Assembly (NCBI GenBank): GCA_022340845.1
Contig: JAJDNG010000136.1
Coordinates: forward strand, 1 to 47,640
Direction: 5' to 3'
Length of the DNA stretch: 47,640 nucleotides
Source: Gammaproteobacteria bacterium
Lineage (GTDB): Bacteria; Pseudomonadota; Gammaproteobacteria; SZUA-152
The position numbers and the translations under genes were made by a program. The number at the start of each line of letters is the position of its first letter. The first letter of the stretch is position 1. This document shows, piece by piece, positions 4,845 to 42,228 of this stretch. Below the pieces are notes generated by a model, which searched no databases, was not told where the DNA came from, and saw only the letters and a program-made list of their open reading frames with translations.

Positions 4845-5287
4845 CACGGCTGGTCCTTCAATCCTTGGGGTTGTCCGTTGACCACAGTGCTATTCATCTC
4901 CGAATCCGTGATAACAGAACGTGTATATTGTGAAGACGGCAAGCGCACCACAATCTCGTGCCGCGCTTTGCTGAGTGTCACCTCAGCGGCATTGATTGTG
5001 GTAACCGTCGCATCGCCGGATTTCCCCGCCTTCACGGCATCGCCGATGGTGACGACTTGATTGTTAATGACTGCCACTTTTCTTTGCTCGGATACTAAAA
5101 TCGAGGTCACTTGGTAGTCTTGTGGATTCAGCCTGGGCCGATTATCGACCGGCGCGGGTTTTCGTTGGTTAAAGACCGGTGGTTTGGTGGGATCGAAGGT
5201 TTCCGCCTGTAAGGGCAAACAAAACCAGGCCAGCACAGTGAATAACACTGCCGTTCGCACCGGAATTGTTGGGCTACGGCTAGACAC
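4844..5287 (-). CDS. mshK: Small secreted pilus biogenesis protein (MshK-like)
   Basis: 147-aa ORF sitting between the PilO-like gene and the secretin, as in msh clusters. Signal-peptide-like ...RTAVLFTVLAWFCLPLQA/ETF. Non-ATG start: GTG at 5287, or GTG at 5260, which would give MRTAVLF... Confidence 0.5.
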   Translation of the reverse strand: MSSRSPTIPVRTAVLFTVLAWFCLPLQAETFDPTKPPVFNQRKPAPVDNRPRLNPQDYQVTSILVSEQRKVAVINNQVVTIGDAVKAGKSGDATVTTINAAEVTLSKARHEIVVRLPSSQYTRSVITDSEMNSTVVNGQPQGLKDQP

Positions 5288-6044
5288 TGATCCACCTCTT
5301 ATCCAAGCTCAAGGTATGGATACGCACTAAAATTTGTGCCTTGGGATAGTTCAGCACCTCATACGCCACTTCTTCCCAATAAAACTTCCAGGGCAATTGC
5401 TCCAGCTTTCTTAAGTAACTCAACGTGCTGTTATAGTCGCCCTGGAACACGATTTCCAAACCATGTTTGTACACTTCCGGTAAAGAAGCAGCGCCGTCGG
5501 TAGCAGTTTGTTCCTCGGGCTGAGATTTGGTTTTCGCGCCGGATGAGACCTTTGGCGTTTTCACAGCGCGGCCTTTGCTTGGCGAGATTAATTCAGGCGA
5601 TCTGTGAACCAATGACTGCACCGCCTGGCTCTGCAATCGGGTCAGTTGCAGCCCTTTTTCGGTGGCTAATAAGCCTTTTAATACATCAACCATCTGCCCC
5701 GGCCGGATAAAGCTAACCGCCAGCGCTTTTTGCCGCTGATTTAGCTCACTAATTTCATTTTTGAGTCGCTCGATGTGTTGTATCGCTTGATTTTTCCCGG
5801 TATCGCTCATGCTGGTGCTGGTTATTTGGATGCGTTTGTCTATATCCGCAATCTGGCTGCGCCATTTTTTTACTTGAATCGTCGAGGCTTTTTGCTGGCC
5901 GCGAATTCGCTCCATCAAAACCATATCCCAGCCAATGTACATTACCGCTAAAATAACCCCCAGGAACAACAGCCGCTCGCGTAAAGACAACGCCTCAAAT
6001 CGCTCTGACCACAGTTGCATTTTTTCTTTTAAGGGGCTAATCAT
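5280..6044 (-). CDS. mshJ: PilO-like pilus assembly protein (MshJ-like)
   Basis: 254-aa ORF with ATG at 6044. Single N-terminal TM (LLFLGVILAVMYIGWDMVL) followed by a coiled-coil. Its position between the PilN-like gene and mshK supports the call. Confidence 0.6.
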   Translation of the reverse strand: MISPLKEKMQLWSERFEALSLRERLLFLGVILAVMYIGWDMVLMERIRGQQKASTIQVKKWRSQIADIDKRIQITSTSMSDTGKNQAIQHIERLKNEISELNQRQKALAVSFIRPGQMVDVLKGLLATEKGLQLTRLQSQAVQSLVHRSPELISPSKGRAVKTPKVSSGAKTKSQPEEQTATDGAASLPEVYKHGLEIVFQGDYNSTLSYLRKLEQLPWKFYWEEVAYEVLNYPKAQILVRIHTLSLDKRWISV

Positions 6045-6062: not shown

Positions 6063-6680
6063 TTATTTATTCACGCCCGGGACTTGCAGTTCTTTGGATG
6101 ACAGTACAAATTCGATCCACGAACGGCTGGATTCTTCACGAGCCATTTGCAATACGGTAAATTCCAAACCCGCTAACGCAGGTTCTTCGGACAAGCCCTG
6201 CAAAAACAAAGGCAACAATTCAGCCGACAATGCTCCGCCCTTGATTAGCATATGTTCTCCGCCGTCAAATATGCTGAATTTGCTTATCCACATACCCTGC
6301 ACGACACGCCGCGAAAAAATCTCCAGATATTCTGAAAATCCCAATGCTTTGCCCAGCTTGTCTTTGCCCAGCAGGGAAACTATGTACCTTTCGGCGGCAA
6401 GCTCCGCTTCCAGCCGTTGAATTTCTTCTTCCACATCATTGCCATTAGCAAGGTTGGCGGCTTCGCGGCTGATGCGCTCCAGCATGCTAATGCGCTCATC
6501 ATGCTGCTTTTTTAAGCCACTGACTTCTGTCGCCAGTCCGTGGTTACTCCACATGCCATAGCCATACAAAGCGGCCAAGGCGACAATCACAATGCCACTG
6601 ATCTGCACAAGCGCCTCGAACGACAGAACCTTGCGCTCTTTGCGAAAAATAGGTTGAAACAGATTAATCTGCTGGTTCAT
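6063..6680 (-). CDS. mshI: PilN-like fimbrial assembly protein (corresponds to the C-terminal part of MshI)
   Basis: ORF 6063-6692 (GTG at 6692, ATG at 6680). MNQQINLFQPIFRKERKVLSFE + TM (ISGIVIVALAALYGYGMW) + coiled coil is the typical PilN N-terminus. No PilM-like domain is encoded upstream. Confidence 0.6.
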   Translation of the reverse strand: MNQQINLFQPIFRKERKVLSFEALVQISGIVIVALAALYGYGMWSNHGLATEVSGLKKQHDERISMLERISREAANLANGNDVEEEIQRLEAELAAERYIVSLLGKDKLGKALGFSEYLEIFSRRVVQGMWISKFSIFDGGEHMLIKGGALSAELLPLFLQGLSEEPALAGLEFTVLQMAREESSRSWIEFVLSSKELQVPGVNK

Positions 6681-6805
6681 AGCAATGCCCACGCCGTGGC
6701 CTTGAAGTTTGCGGAATTCGCAGTAGAGGAACTGCCGTTTGACAATATAAGGCCGGGCGAATCAATCCAATGTATGGAGCTTTGTTCAATTTTGCACATA
6801 AAAAG

Positions 6806-11371: not shown

Positions 11372-12274
11372 TTATTTTAAACCCAACATCAAGTCCAACC
11401 GGCCCCGGTTTTCCAAGTCATACATGTCATCGCAACCGCCCACATGCACATCGCCTATGAAGATTTGCGGCACGGTTTTGCGTTTGGCTTTTTGTTCCAT
11501 TTCTTCGCGCAGCTGGGGATTTTGGTCGATGTCAATTTCTTTAAAACCGACACCTTTGGTGGTGAGCAGATTCACCGCGCGTACGCAAAAGGGACAGCGC
11601 CGGGTGGTATATACTACCACTTTCTCCTCCAGTGCCTGGCGGTCTTGGTTGGATGTAGAATCTTCGCCGCGGGTATTCGCATTGGTTTTTGAGGCTTTGG
11701 TTTTTGAGGCTTTGGTTTTTGAATTATTGGTTTCGGAAGCATGAGTGTCAGAGGCTTCGTCGCTGACTGTGGCCGCGTTATCGGTGGAATTATCTTCTGA
11801 ACGCTTGTGTTGTTGATCGGTTGAACCGGAGCCACTATCGCCGGGCGGTGGCGTTTTGTCTTTGGTTAAAGGTAAACTAGCGTTTTGCCAGGCCATCACG
11901 CCGCCGGCCAGGTTATAGACTTGTTCAAAGCCTTGTTTTTTCAACCGACCGCCGGCCTGACTGGAACGATTACCGCTGCGGCAATAGAGAATGAGTGGCC
12001 GGTTTTTGTATTTACTGATTTCCTTGAGTTTGCTATCCAGCAATCCTAACGGCGCATGCAAGGAATGCAGGATATGACCATCGCGATATTCATCATCGGT
12101 GCGCACGTCGATAAACACGGCGTTTTTGTGATTGGACATGCCTACGGCTTCCATTGGCCCGATGCCTTTTACACCACCGGGTGTAATCCAGGTACGTGCC
12201 AACAGCACGAGTATTATAATCAGCGCTAAAAACAGCACCGCGTTGTTGGTCACAAACTCGGTCAATTGGTCCAT
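11372..12274 (-). CDS. Membrane-anchored rhodanese (YibN-like) fused through a low-complexity linker to a C-terminal glutaredoxin domain
   Basis: 300 aa. TM (AVLFLALIIILVLLA). Rhodanese domain with active-site loop LYCRSGNRS (Cys98). S/T/D/N/K-rich linker at aa ~141-214. Grx domain VVVYTTRRCPFCVRAVNLL...VPQIFIGDVHVGGCDDM (CPFC at 227-230). Confidence 0.8.
   Translation of the reverse strand: MDQLTEFVTNNAVLFLALIIILVLLARTWITPGGVKGIGPMEAVGMSNHKNAVFIDVRTDDEYRDGHILHSLHAPLGLLDSKLKEISKYKNRPLILYCRSGNRSSQAGGRLKKQGFEQVYNLAGGVMAWQNASLPLTKDKTPPPGDSGSGSTDQQHKRSEDNSTDNAATVSDEASDTHASETNNSKTKASKTKASKTNANTRGEDSTSNQDRQALEEKVVVYTTRRCPFCVRAVNLLTTKGVGFKEIDIDQNPQLREEMEQKAKRKTVPQIFIGDVHVGGCDDMYDLENRGRLDLMLGLK
11681..11736. 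repeat. In-frame 15-bp tandem repeat (about 3.5 units) inside the rhodanese-Grx linker
   Basis: ATTGGTTTTTGAGGC / TTTGGTTTTTGAGGC / TTTGGTTTTTGAATT / ATTGGTTTCGG. These encode ...SKTKASKTKASKTNAN... on the minus strand. Confidence 0.85.
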
Positions 12275-32459: not shown

Positions 32460-34481
<2,022 letters not shown>

Positions 34482-40605: not shown

Positions 40606-41045
40606 GTGTCCTCCTCCATCTCTAGTCGATGATTGGTTTTATTATGTCTAACGCATCGTCAAAGAATAACCTTGGTGATGCCTGTACAAAACAAGAAAAT
40701 TTTTATTGTTGAAAAAGAAAAAACGACACCGTTTTATCGATTAAACATTTATTTTGCGCAATGATACCCATTTTTGGATGCACTTGGGTTAGTTTTTTGC
40801 ATTTTTTTAAAAATAATTGTTGATTTCATGCTGACTTTTTATTAAGTTCCAACTATTTTTAGAATAAGTATTAATCATTACTTATTAGCAAGTTAGTAAA
40901 TGCGACAAAATAGAATGTCATAACATGATCTTGATGCTTATAGACACGTTTACCAACACTATTTCAAATACGCGCATTTCCATGCATTTGCAAACGGACA
41001 CAATATCGCGCAACATGACGGCAGCCAAGGGAGATAAATAGCCAG

Positions 41046-42128
41046 ATGAGAATCGTACTAGTGGGTGCGCCTGGATCAGGTAAAGGCACGCAGGCAAAAA
41101 TGCTAGTCGATAAGTATGGCGTTCCACAAATTTCGACCGGCGACCTTCTTCGCAAAGCAGTTGCCGAACAAACCCCGTTGGGTTTAATGGCAAAAGCCGC
41201 CATGGATACTGGCCAGTTAGTCACCGACCAAATCGTGTTGGACATCATCAAAGAACGCCTCGCCCGGGCCGATGCAGACAATGGTTTTATTCTCGACGGA
41301 TTTCCCCGCAACCTTAATCAAGCGCAGGCATTGGATGATGCGCTGGCCAGCATCGGTAAACCACTACAAGGTGCTATTCTCATTAAAATCGATTACGATC
41401 TGTTAATTCAACGCATTACTGGGCGTAGAACTTGCTTATCGTGTGGTGCGGTTTACAATATATACACATCGCCTGCGAAGCTGGAAGACCATTGCGACGA
41501 ATGCGGTGGTAATCTGCATCATCGGGCCGATGATAATGAGCAAACGATTTCCAATCGATTGCGCGTATACGAAACCCAAACGTCTCCATTGATTCATTAC
41601 TACCGGGACCAAAGCAAACTTTTTACCGTAGAAGGCACGGGCGAAATAGATGAGATCTTTGATCAACTGTGCAAAGTCATCGACACCATAGAAGCGCAGG
41701 AACAGCAAAAGGAGCAAGAGCAATATCGCGTAATGAACGAACTGAAGTCCGCGTTGAGCGAACTTGCAGAAGAATCCCATAATAATAATGAAAAACAACA
41801 ACAAAAAACTAAAGAAACAGCAGTAACTTCCGAAAAGAAGGCAAAAGAAGCACCTAAACAAACAGGCACTATTGCCAATAAGGAGGCCACAACAATGGCA
41901 GCAAAACCTAAGAGAGCAAGAGCGGCAGCAAAGAAAAAAGTCGCTCCTAAAAAGAAAGTAGCAACCAAGAAGAAAGCGGCTAAGAAAAAAGTCGCATCCA
42001 AGAAGAAAGTAGCCAAGAAAAAGGTAGCGGCAAAGAAAAAAGCCGCTCCTAAGAAGAAGGCTGCCAAGAAAAAGGTTGCTAAAAAGAAAACCGCTGCGAA
42101 GAAAAAAGCAGCGAAAAAGCGCAAGTAA
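41046..42128 (+). CDS. adk: Adenylate kinase (Cys4 zinc-lid type) continuing in frame into an acidic linker and a lysine/alanine-rich histone-H1-like C-terminal tail
   Basis: 360-aa ORF. Adk core aa 1-~215 (MRIVLVGAPGSGKGTQA, ILDGFPRN, lid CLSC...CDEC, RLRVYETQTSPLIHYY). Tail aa 284-360 is (KKKxA)n ending KKRK. Confidence 0.85.
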   Translation: MRIVLVGAPGSGKGTQAKMLVDKYGVPQISTGDLLRKAVAEQTPLGLMAKAAMDTGQLVTDQIVLDIIKERLARADADNGFILDGFPRNLNQAQALDDALASIGKPLQGAILIKIDYDLLIQRITGRRTCLSCGAVYNIYTSPAKLEDHCDECGGNLHHRADDNEQTISNRLRVYETQTSPLIHYYRDQSKLFTVEGTGEIDEIFDQLCKVIDTIEAQEQQKEQEQYRVMNELKSALSELAEESHNNNEKQQQKTKETAVTSEKKAKEAPKQTGTIANKEATTMAAKPKRARAAAKKKVAPKKKVATKKKAAKKKVASKKKVAKKKVAAKKKAAPKKKAAKKKVAKKKTAAKKKAAKKRK

Positions 42129-42195
42129 AGGGTTGTAATCCTGCTGTTACGCATTCGCAGTCAGGATTGACAACACTCAACGCGTTTTTACTCTT

Positions 42196-42228
42196 AAAAA
42201 GGGTGCATTTCGATGCACCCTTTTTTTT
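42196..42228 (+). terminator. Rho-independent terminator after adk
   Basis: AAAAA-GGGTGCAT-TTCG-ATGCACCC-TTTTTTTT. Confidence 0.9.

Follow-up and report, generated by a model that had tools for sequence, protein, structure and literature searches.

The adk locus and its adenylate kinase core

The adk gene analysed here encodes an adenylate kinase (Adk) followed by a long polycationic tail. It lies in a window (the whole stretch of DNA analysed, 47,640 nt) where its reading frame runs without internal stop or frameshift. The 360-residue product, with a predicted mass of 39.6 kDa, consists of an Adk core (residues 1–214), a Q/E-rich segment predicted to be helical (residues 215–257), a short spacer and a tail of 77 residues (Table 1). 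The neighbours of adk include genes of PPi-based energy metabolism, namely an H+-PPase and a phosphofructokinase (Pfam PFK), the latter presumably PPi-dependent. Neither ppk nor ppx was found among the ~30 ORFs scanned in the window, and no gene tying adk to polyphosphate (polyP) or nucleoid functions was seen in it. Downstream of adk, the first-pass annotation had placed a strong terminator. Folding bears this out: a U-run follows a hairpin of 13 bp (dG −18.2 kcal/mol, z = −4.5), whose stability none of 200 shuffled sequences equals. A simple consensus terminator scan left this element unlisted.

Table 1. Coordinates of the features of the adk locus in the window
Feature	Position	Strand	Details
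Shine-Dalgarno-like AGGGAG of adk	41028..41033	+	12 nt 5' of annotated ATG; read from sequence
adk reading frame	41046..42128	+	360 aa; ORF translation
Adk core, aa 1-214	41046..41687	+	Pfam, NCBIfam, PDB alignment, AF2
Cys4 Zn-type lid	41433..41504	+	C130, C133, C150, C153
Q/E-rich extension, aa 215-257	41688..41816	+	composition, AF2; net charge -4
Predicted disordered spacer, aa 258-283	41817..41894	+	AF2 pLDDT <50 from aa 256 on
Internal Shine-Dalgarno AAGGAGG	41880..41886	+	K279-E280-A281 codons; 8 nt 5' of internal ATG; AGGAGG proper 41881-41886
Candidate internal start ATG (Met284), in frame	41895..41897	+	would begin free 77-aa basic protein
Polycationic tail, aa 284-360, and stop	41895..42128	+	KKK(V/A)A(x) repeats, C-terminal KKAAKKRK
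Intrinsic terminator	42196..42228	+	hairpin AAAAAGGGUGCAU-UUCG-AUGCACCCUUUUU, then three more U

As judged by profile matches, the core belongs to the adenylate kinase family, with a score above the equivalog cutoff and a complete P-loop and lid. The Pfam domains ADK and ADK_lid span residues 5–190 (E=2.7e-53 and E=2.3e-13), with 180.6 bits for PF00406 (cutoff 26.8) and 50.2 bits for PF05191 (cutoff 26.6). The NCBIfam adk equivalog NF001380 is matched with 290.6 bits (cutoff 251) and TIGR01351 with 252.6 bits (cutoff 168). Residues 1–214 correspond to positions 1–214 of the 216 in NF001380, in keeping with the first-pass annotation, which had the core complete by about residue 215. Likewise, Adks of the PDB (181–245 aa) match the protein over residues 1–213 only. 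The P-loop GAPGSGKGT occupies residues 7–15, and the four cysteines of the lid are invariant in an alignment of 22 relatives (alignment A1). This part of the protein is acidic (pI 5.2) and of the Zn-lid type. In the AF2 model, pLDDT is ~90 across most of the core and 66–82 over the lid region (residues 121–180).

The C-terminal extension

Past the core, the frame remains open through a linker made of the Q/E-rich extension and the spacer. The extension contains 10 D/E and 8 Q residues, and AF2 predicts a single helix over residues 201–257 that prolongs the last helix of Adk, with pLDDT dropping from 92 to 60. Its sequence is poorly conserved among relatives, and the frame is open in all of them. 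Two semi-conserved motifs, KTKE and SEKKAKEAP, lie in the spacer, which ends in a K-E dipeptide, of which K279 is nearly invariant (at least 90%) and E280 invariant in the 22 sequences of alignment A1. The linker is otherwise 37% identical in this alignment, yet both E280 and M284, the first residue of the tail, are invariant. Stop codons are distributed unevenly among the three frames of 30 distinct linkers (mean length 61 codons), with none in frame 0, 96 in frame +1 and 174 in frame +2. This comparison shows that the fused frame is under selection to remain open.

The tail itself is made of 38 Lys and 3 Arg per 77 residues (~49% Lys), with 3 Pro and not a single D or E, giving a net charge of +41, a mass of 8.3 kDa and a pI of 12. 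Its units KKKVA, KKKAA and KKKVAx reflect an imperfect tandem array in the DNA (41928–42119), with periods of 15, 18, 33 and 51 nt, i.e. units of 5–6 residues. The first-pass annotation had assigned the tail to the Adk ORF, counted 38 Lys in 77 residues and described 5–6-residue periods; the uninterrupted frame, an identical count and the array in the DNA agree with it on each point. A pLDDT of ~30 predicts disorder. In close relatives the length of the tail varies, and the frame and a C-terminal KKR[KR] are retained. No other K-rich tail is found in the ORFs of the window. The first-pass annotation had suggested a nucleoid-tethered Adk as one reading; the composition would suit any polyanion, be it DNA, RNA or polyP. 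On the reverse strand, an ORF of 163 aa (41663–42154, poly-Phe/Ala/Leu) simply reflects the Lys/Ala repeats of the opposite strand and was discounted.

Spread and age of the fusion

The same 360-residue protein is encoded, without any difference, on four further contigs from four different metagenome samples. More distantly, >200 distinct gammaproteobacterial Adks carry fused basic tails, reaching down to ~45–50% identity in the core, with tail charges ranging from +40 to +130. The best 120 homologues have lengths of 254–505 aa; all are at least 290 aa long except a fragment (P0019), and all have K/A-rich tails except a partial sequence (P0009). Two scans, both seeded on core motifs only and not on the tail, give a similar picture. 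Among the matches listed, fused tails occur in 33 of 80 GTDB species representatives, the nearest representatives having Adks of 63–69% identity. In the metagenome loci, every complete locus has a fused tail except one (L163), where adk-hemB synteny is kept and neither tail nor small ORF is present. Since this tailless locus has the same synteny, some backgrounds can do without the tail.

In a neighbour-joining tree of 230 distinct cores, Adks with K-rich tails form a single large block, with the clade of the window (~95 cores) nested within it. Their carriers are numerous and widespread Gammaproteobacteria, most of them uncultured, from sediments, vents and symbioses. Among the matches listed, metagenome-assembled genomes (MAGs) with Thiotrichaceae, Chromatiales/tubeworm-symbiont and Ectothiorhodospiraceae titles are rich in tailed Adks; in Steroidobacteraceae, Arg-rich tails occur. 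A cultured strain, Steroidobacter gossypii S1-65 (L044), has a tailed Adk of 350 aa that lacks the nested start. Chance does not account for the feature, as the identical protein recurs on four further contigs and the architecture is kept in hundreds of relatives. The first-pass annotation had considered that adk might recently have lost its stop and so become fused to a downstream small histone-like gene. This view has to be abandoned, given the clade of ~95 cores, the wider clades at ~45–50% core identity and the 30 distinct linkers without any in-frame stop. Phylogenetic spread thus indicates a fusion that is old and maintained, not recent.

An internal Shine-Dalgarno sequence and candidate start codon

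At the junction between spacer and tail, the first-pass annotation had seen a perfect AGGAGG 8 nt before an in-frame ATG (41895), exactly where the basic tail begins, and had suggested the tail as a possible protein in its own right. The motif is there, the extended sequence AAGGAGG preceding the ATG at a distance within the 5–10 nt expected of a Shine-Dalgarno (SD) sequence. As for separate translation of the tail, it becomes the best-supported part of the finding, because the internal SD and ATG are conserved beyond what the amino acids need. Met284 is invariant in alignment A1 and across the whole clade of ~95 distinct cores, and the internal-start motif is found in 87 of the best 120 homologues. 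The residue that follows the internal Met is A, T or S without exception, and such second residues are compatible with removal of the N-terminal Met.

Conservation extends to synonymous positions. Of 30 distinct coding sequences (CDSs), 28 encode K-E at the site by AAG-GAG, a count of related, non-independent sequences that overstates the number of independent events. In those genes GAG makes up 22% of Glu codons, and K-E dipeptides elsewhere are encoded by AAAGAA in 49 of 64 cases (77%). Synonymous sites flanking the internal SD vary freely. In two loci the arrangement AGGAG, 9 nt, ATG is retained despite an amino acid replacement, K to Q in L100 (CAGGAG) and K to E in L117 (GAGGAG); in a third (L005, AAGGAG) K-E is retained and the spacing to the ATG is likewise 9 nt. 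Predicted pairing with the anti-SD of the ribosome is strong. The internal site of the window gene gives a duplex of −12.2 kcal/mol, a value unsurpassed in the window that matches the strongest SD of any gene there, and the annotated adk start, with −8.1 kcal/mol, is weaker. Averaged over 31 CDSs, the values are −10.6 kcal/mol for the internal Met, −9.7 kcal/mol for the annotated start and −1.3 kcal/mol for other in-frame Mets. The RNA around the internal SD is unstructured (folding z = −0.1), and no structure that would mask or expose the internal ribosome-binding site was found. Codon comparison shows selection on this site at synonymous positions. Nothing else in the extension is as well conserved as the internal SD with its ATG, whether amino acids or synonymous codons are compared.

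Two other roles for the region were considered and rejected. A programmed frameshift stimulated by the SD lacks a slippery heptamer at the right spacing, the A-runs of the tail being at most 6 nt long. An internal promoter would have to rely on a single sigma-70-like match (41754–41783), where 3.1 matches are expected by chance; this match sits in a stretch conserved among close relatives only.

One frame, one or two products

On balance, the conserved features make it probable that the single adk frame yields two proteins, a polyanion-tethered Adk and a free 8-kDa polycation. The full-length protein would combine Adk with a helical spacer of ~40 residues and the disordered polylysine/alanine tail (+41), which would act as an electrostatic tether and concentrate the enzyme on nucleoid DNA, RNA or polyP. 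Equilibration of 2 ADP with ATP and AMP would then occur where the tail holds Adk. Ribosomes would also initiate at the internal SD and ATG (41880–41897) of the same mRNA, releasing the tail (pI 12) as a polycation resembling histone H1. The tail can be seen as a polyanion binder because of its net charge, its lack of acidic residues and its predicted disorder. We infer the production of both proteins from sequence, and the binding in vivo, together with the choice of polyanion, is to be read in the same conditional sense. The absence of any Met from the tails of most other K-rich-tailed clades implies that a free tail is unnecessary for the role of the tail on Adk, and limits the idea of two products to the clade of the window.

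The odd length of the protein and its internal SD with ATG were the sole reasons to suspect an artefact, i.e. an error of sequencing or assembly, or else a pseudogenised stop, hiding a true Adk of 214 residues and a separate small gene. Nothing was found in favour of this reading, which sequence comparison effectively refutes and whose probability is close to nil. The identical ORF recurs in the four further assemblies, no stop or frameshift lies between ~41690 and 41895, and the frame is open in hundreds of diverged relatives although their linkers have undergone many indels. Two separate ORFs instead of the fusion occur in no sampled relative. When the 3-kb flanks of 47 short-adk loci were scanned for K/R/A-rich ORFs, just off-frame noise of high-GC DNA was found, and no K-rich ORF lies 3' of any short-adk locus sampled. 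Outside Adk, a hidden Markov model (HMM) built on the linker with the start motif has no match among 1.84 billion representative proteins, its only hits being two Adk fragments, a negative that is weak because the protein set holds one representative per 50% cluster. Another explanation, though an unlikely one, is that only the Adk-tail fusion matters and that a free tail is not made in any relevant quantity. The internal AAGGAG...ATG would then be either a relic left when, long ago, adk became fused to an H1-like gene downstream of it, or a site where translation pauses after the folded domain and before the polylysine tract; that intragenic SD-like sequences make elongating ribosomes pause has been proposed and is disputed. 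The missing Met of most other tailed clades agrees with a tail that works as part of Adk, and read-through is clearly selected, with zero frame-0 stops in 30 linkers. A relic, however, should decay, and the SD is preserved at its synonymous sites next to others that vary, surviving even amino acid replacement. A pause site, for its part, would work without a Met kept invariant at exactly 9 nt downstream and without a small residue next to that Met, and a single product does not account for an internal SD at least as strong as that of the gene itself.

Within the two-product explanation, it is tempting to ask whether the tail targets polyP rather than DNA, although we regard this variant as doubtful. 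Adk would reside on polyP granules, where conversion of 2 ADP into ATP and AMP would complete the regeneration of ATP from polyP with a PPK2/PAP-type enzyme, and the free tail would be a granule organiser like AlgP. By analogy, AlgP and Caulobacter Ppk1 are brought to polyP granules by basic C-terminal tails. In E. coli and Acinetobacter, a polyP:AMP phosphotransferase activity reportedly arises from Adk combined with PPK or PAP (Ishige and Noguchi 2000). Furthermore, tailed Adks are concentrated, among the matches listed, in MAGs of Thiotrichaceae, Chromatiales/tubeworm symbionts and Ectothiorhodospiraceae, groups that include conspicuous polyP accumulators, and the gene adjoins the H+-PPase and PFK genes. 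On the other hand, the window has no polyP gene, charge alone cannot tell polyP from DNA or RNA, and Arg-rich tails are found in Steroidobacteraceae, which to our knowledge are not polyP specialists. Returning to the two-product reading in its broadest form, adk may be dual-coding throughout the clade, with both products building and populating a polyanion compartment, either polyP granules or the nucleoid; as a proposal from sequence this is speculative.

Implications

As a rule, adenylate kinase is taken to be a housekeeping enzyme that diffuses freely. Eukaryotic isoforms are known to be positioned in the cell, and we know of no such case in bacteria. A maintained fusion to tails of +40 to +130 implies that Adk is positioned inside the cell. 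If the dual-coding reading is true, a bacterium would have a localised site for the equilibration of ATP, ADP and AMP. Should polyP be the target, a polyP store would be physically coupled to ATP regeneration, which would give a direct handle on the coupling of polyP stores to the adenylate pool. For comparative genomics, a nested in-frame protein that would consist of the disordered tail only is a clean case. Annotation pipelines give all tailed members the plain name 'adenylate kinase', and thereby miss the tail and the putative nested product.

Comparison with known systems

The core is of the same family as the canonical short Adks (NF001380; PDB 1zin, 1p3j and 1ake), and its Cys4 lid is like that of Bacillus/Geobacillus Adk. 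To the first-pass annotation, a tail of this kind on a characterised Adk was unknown, and none has come to light since: the open-access literature searched yielded no report of a bacterial Adk with a tail, all solved Adks in the PDB have 181–245 aa and none has a 146-aa extension. Profile scans of Pfam and NCBIfam gave no curated family that covers the tail. One model, NF010381 (PRK13808, 'adenylate kinase', 335 positions), is curated for an unusually long Adk, a type with which annotators are thus familiar, and in this respect recalls the protein of the window. The latter reaches 212.3 bits against a cutoff of 426, its best stretch being profile positions 1–127; seven other tailed Adks score 173–209 bits, equally below 426, and most match positions 1–127 only. 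By these scores, NF010381 is a separate lineage of long Adk.

Histone-like proteins resemble the tail in composition. Eukaryotic linker histone H1 shares with it only the composition of its C-terminal domain; the winged-helix domain is absent, and Pfam Linker_histone gives no match at E<=1 with the whole protein or with residues 216–360. Nor does the protein match chlamydial Hc2 (PF07382) at E<=1, and for the Burkholderia-type histone H1-like family NF038053 it scores 13.2 bits (E = 0.077) against a cutoff of 80. Some longer-tailed relatives bear a precomputed PF07382 match, which is likely composition-driven. Small, extremely Lys/Ala-rich bacterial proteins of the Hc1/Hc2 type have pentamer-like repeats, the number of which varies by slippage (PMC2848022). 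Hc1/Hc2 and the H1-like proteins of Burkholderia and Bordetella are free-standing, as the putative 8-kDa internal product would be. Each of them, however, has its own gene, whereas the polycation of the window is nested in frame inside adk.

A comparable architecture is that of Pseudomonas AlgP and PhaF, in which disordered, histone-H1-like C-terminal domains of Lys/Ala-rich repeats, variable in number, are attached to an unrelated N-terminal module, as in the window. Their units are KPAA (KPVA, KTAAA), whereas the tail of the window is built of KKK(V/A)A(x), without KPAA units or profile-level similarity, and its N-terminal partner is a core metabolic enzyme. We know of no internal start site described for AlgP or PhaF. 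The KPAA repeats of AlgP bind DNA in vitro, and through its tail AlgP is found on polyP granules (PMC9239181); a basic C-terminal tail is required for the localisation of Caulobacter Ppk1 to these granules (PMC3806658). A Lys-rich low-complexity C-terminal tail on a conserved core, like that of the window Adk, is also present in the actinobacterial proteins Ku, HupB, topoisomerase I and Streptomyces DdbA. The PAKKA-type tails of mycobacterial Ku and HupB are reported to modulate DNA binding (PMC3553676, PMC5676037) and, more generally, Lys-rich tails of Actinobacteria affect nucleic-acid binding or localisation (PMC3553676, PMC5676037, PMC9760754, PMC3643593). These partners already act on DNA, whereas Adk has no known nucleic-acid substrate, and they further differ from the protein of the window by phylum, by repeat unit and by having no nested start.

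For the nested start itself, precedents exist in E. coli, where in-frame internal initiation in infB, clpB and cheA gives C-terminal proteoforms (see the Ribo-RET catalogue, bioRxiv 10.1101/520783). In these genes an SD and an in-frame start within the ORF yield the C-terminal part of the protein, as proposed for adk of the window. The E. coli cases are experimentally shown, whereas that of the window is deduced from conservation. Unlike the products of infB, clpB and cheA, the short product of adk would be the disordered tail alone, with no folded domain.

Architecture of the tailed adenylate kinase

The adk ORF encodes a complete adenylate kinase (Adk) core, assigned to the NCBIfam equivalog NF001380: profile positions 1–214 of 216 are covered, with 290.6 bits against a cutoff of 251. 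PDB Adk structures (181–245 aa) match the protein only at aa 1–213. The lid carries four cysteines, invariant among relatives, like Bacillus-type Zn-Adks. The core alone has a mass of 23.5 kDa and a pI of 5.2, and the full protein a mass of 39.6 kDa. In the AlphaFold2 model, the Q/E-rich segment prolongs the last Adk helix, with pLDDT dropping from 92 to 60, and the tail (net charge +41, 8.3 kDa, pI 12) has a pLDDT of ∼30; helical spacer and disordered polycation are predicted features. Imperfect tandem repeats, with periods of 15, 18, 33 and 51 nt, make up the tail DNA. All that the first-pass annotation had read from the sequence proved correct, including its count of 38 lysines in 77 residues. 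A 163-aa reverse-strand ORF of Phe/Ala/Leu runs (41663–42154) merely mirrors the Lys/Ala repeat on the opposite strand and was rejected as a gene; gene finders could mis-call it.

Features of the adk region (nucleotide positions in the window; aa, residues of the adk product)
Feature	Position	Strand	Properties
Membrane H+-pyrophosphatase	32460–34481	+	Pfam H_PPase, E=1e-259; close to adk
Sensor histidine kinase, 1493 aa	34731–39212	+	Many PAS, two GAF, then HisKA/HATPase_c
Phosphofructokinase (PFK), 421 aa	39340–40605	-	Pfam PFK; divergent from adk
adk ORF	41046–42128	+	360 aa; frame free of stops and frameshifts
Adk core	aa 1–214	+	Pfam ADK and ADK_lid; NF001380
Q/E-rich segment	aa 215–257	+	Net charge -4
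Spacer	aa 258–283	+	Predicted disordered
Internal Shine–Dalgarno (SD)	41880–41886	+	AAGGAGG, 8 nt ahead of in-frame ATG
Internal start ATG	41895	+	In frame with adk; candidate start of 77-aa product
Polycationic tail	aa 284–360	+	38 Lys, 3 Arg, 23 Ala, zero acidic residues
Terminator	42196–42228	+	13-bp hairpin, then U-run; dG -18.2 kcal/mol, z = -4.5

Age and spread of the fusion

A recent fusion through loss of the adk stop, as had been suggested from the sequence, does not hold. The identical 360-aa protein occurs on four further contigs, each from a different JGI metagenome sample, and diverged relatives are fused as well; the fusion is therefore neither artefact nor recent. No stop or frameshift was found in frame. 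Thirty distinct linkers between core and tail (14–78 codons, mean 61) contain no stop in frame 0, 96 in frame +1 and 174 in frame +2, so read-through from core into tail is under selection. Nor does any sampled relative carry the two parts as separate ORFs: no K-rich ORF lies close to a short adk at any short-adk locus examined. Metagenome locus L163 is simply tail-less: it has a 228-aa Adk (51–737) and keeps the adk–hemB synteny (hemB at 900–1925), so the tail was lost, or never gained, near the tailed clades.

The 120 best matches of the protein search span 254–505 aa, all of at least 290 aa except fragment P0019, and all except the partial P0009 have K/A-rich tails, at identities down to ∼48%. 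Because this word-based search favours K-rich matches, sampling was redone by DNA scans seeded on Adk-core peptides only. Basic tails of 50–360 aa were found in 33 of the 80 best-matching GTDB species representatives, titled Thiotrichaceae, Thiotrichales, Ectothiorhodospiraceae, Steroidobacteraceae, Nevskiaceae, Chromatiales (a MAG, L015) and, near-identical to L015, Lamellibrachia endosymbiont (L014); one of the 33 is the cultured strain Steroidobacter gossypii S1-65. Adks of ordinary length, 212–230 aa, are found in Methylophaga, Oceanococcus, Woeseiaceae and non-gammaproteobacterial phyla. Among 80 metagenome loci, every complete adk ORF is long except that of L163. When 230 distinct cores were placed on a neighbour-joining tree, a quick distance tree that is indicative only, K-rich-tailed Adks formed a single large block in which the window's clade (∼95 cores) is nested, and Steroidobacteraceae and Nevskiaceae, with their Arg/Lys tails, made up a set of their own. 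A tailed Adk of 78% identity (P0009) is deposited as Kaarinaea lacus, a cyanobacterial (Nostocales) species name; its relatives are all gammaproteobacterial, so its 5.5-kb contig is probably a contaminant of a non-axenic culture.

Tails vary among relatives. In four Thiotrichaceae/Ectothiorhodospiraceae MAGs from GTDB (L010:3001–4251, L012:3001–4293, L017:3001–4107 and L021), an extra 50–100-aa segment, not of low complexity (e.g. ...LKQMQEQLKAIKAEIRQSEMRANALLKIDAQKE...), follows the K-rich block; it looks coiled-coil-like and would be a third module, without counterpart in the window's protein. The Adks of the Lamellibrachia tubeworm endosymbiont (L014:3001–4572) and of the related Chromatiales MAG L015 reach 524 and 545 aa, with a strongly acidic block (EPEPESEPEPE...) followed by >250 aa of KKK(A/V)(S/T)(A/S) repeats that contain as many as 126 Lys. 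Several clades, as well as the homologues P0095 and P0101, show this acidic-then-basic order. The Adks of Steroidobacteraceae MAGs (L036–L063) and S. gossypii S1-65 (L044) form a separate group with 65–140-aa tails. In its high-GC members the tails are rich in Arg instead of Lys (e.g. 24 R versus 8 K), which suggests selection on charge, not on one residue or repeat.

The probable internal start

The perfect SD and in-frame ATG noticed earlier at the start of the tail are present, and conserved at the level of both residues and synonymous codons. Column identity in the linker averages 37%; Met284, encoded by this ATG, and Glu280 are invariant there and Lys279 nearly so, making the internal start the most conserved part of the extension. 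The motif [KE]E-x3-M-[AT]-[AVT] occurs in 87 of 120 homologues. Of 30 distinct CDSs, 28 encode the K-E pair before Met284 as AAG-GAG and two as AAG-GAA, counts that come from related sequences and are not independent events. In these genes GAG is used for only 22% of Glu residues and AAG for 51% of Lys residues, and AAAGAA encodes 49 of the 64 other K-E dipeptides. Simple inheritance is argued against by saturated neighbouring sites, with free variation at the three codons separating GAG from ATG and at surrounding codons, and by loci where the residues differ, CAG-GAG (Q-E) in L100 and GAG-GAG (E-E) in L117, yet AGGAG, 9 nt and ATG are kept. Locus L005 keeps K-E and AAGGAG, 9 nt and ATG downstream of a first K-rich block.

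Mean predicted pairing with the 16S 3′ tail over 31 CDSs is -10.6 kcal/mol at Met284; the annotated adk starts reach -9.7 and all other in-frame Mets -1.3. The window's internal SD (-12.2 kcal/mol predicted) is on par with the best among the window's genes (PFK -12.1, H+-PPase -9.5, hemB -8.9, adk's own start -8.1), and no significant RNA structure was found around it. The residue following Met284 is always Ala, Thr or Ser, as is typical for processed N-termini. Taken together, conservation of protein and DNA, predicted pairing and N-terminus suggest a functional ribosome-binding site, beyond what the protein motif alone would require. A sigma-70-like match in the linker (TTGAGC-18-CATAAT, 41754–41783, + strand), 112 nt ahead of the internal ATG, is at chance level (1 found, 3.1 expected), and its stretch is kept only in close relatives.

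Proposed products and polyanion target

Comparison across relatives shows that the fused frame and the internal ribosome-binding site are conserved, and makes it very probable that a free H1-like polycation has its own start nested within adk. The full-length product would be an Adk held on a polyanion through its tail, and the same mRNA would also give a free 77-aa polycation; tethering, free-tail production and, entirely so, the function of the long-form Adk are what we infer here. Since most other tailed clades lack Met in the tail, the tail's role on Adk is the general feature, and the nested product would be an extra particular to the window's clade.

Adk finishes ATP regeneration from polyP-derived ADP in E. 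coli and Acinetobacter, so polyP as target would make metabolic sense; no polyP gene was seen among the ∼30 ORFs scanned in the window. The sequence does not single out a polyanion, and there are precedents for DNA as well as for polyP. The KPAA tail of AlgP binds DNA in vitro and AlgP is found at polyP granules (PMC9239181), a 22-residue basic C-terminal tail is required for Caulobacter Ppk1 to reach polyP granules (PMC3806658), and PAKKA-type tails are used on DNA by mycobacterial Ku and HupB (PMC3553676, PMC5676037).

Genomic neighbourhood

The source organism is an uncultured gammaproteobacterium (window GC 51%), and the window carries the housekeeping genes hslU, xerC, dapF, ubiE, gpsA, secB, gpmI, hemB and aroE. 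The PFK is taken to be PPi-dependent; it and the H+-PPase appear to set the adenylate-pool enzyme beside genes of a pyrophosphate-based energy economy. The histidine kinase between them is also found upstream of PFK–adk on an independent contig (L001). Elsewhere, a 300-aa ORF (11372–12274, - strand) joins rhodanese (aa 45–132) and glutaredoxin (aa 219–278) domains; its start, assigned mechanically, may lie too far 5′, so the ORF could represent either a true fusion or two neighbouring genes run together. Two ORFs of 254 and 209 aa (5280–6044 and 6063–6692, both - strand) adjoin a secretin and an MshE-type ATPase (T2SSE and MshEN domains); they have no Pfam match at E<=1e-5 and may be divergent pilus-assembly components.

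Comparison with known families and systems

The open-access literature yielded no description of a comparable tail on any bacterial Adk, and an HMM built for the linker/start-motif module matched only two Adk fragments among 1.84 billion representative proteins, one per 50% cluster. The long-form Adk is real, conserved and widespread but uncharacterised. Lys-rich tails on bacterial proteins and in-frame internal initiation in bacteria are each known, the latter from infB, clpB, cheA and a Ribo-RET catalogue (bioRxiv 10.1101/520783); their combination here is, as far as could be found, undescribed. The tail belongs to none of the families compared. It has no match to the globular domain of linker histone H1 or, at E<=1, to chlamydial Hc2 (PF07382), it scores 13 bits against the Burkholderia H1-like NF038053 (cutoff 80), and its KKKVA/KKKAA units differ from the KPAA units of AlgP/PhaF; the protein also falls outside the long Adk model NF010381 (212 bits, cutoff 426). 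In composition, the tail is similar to H1, Hc2, NF038053 and AlgP/PhaF, and its physical behaviour is probably like theirs.
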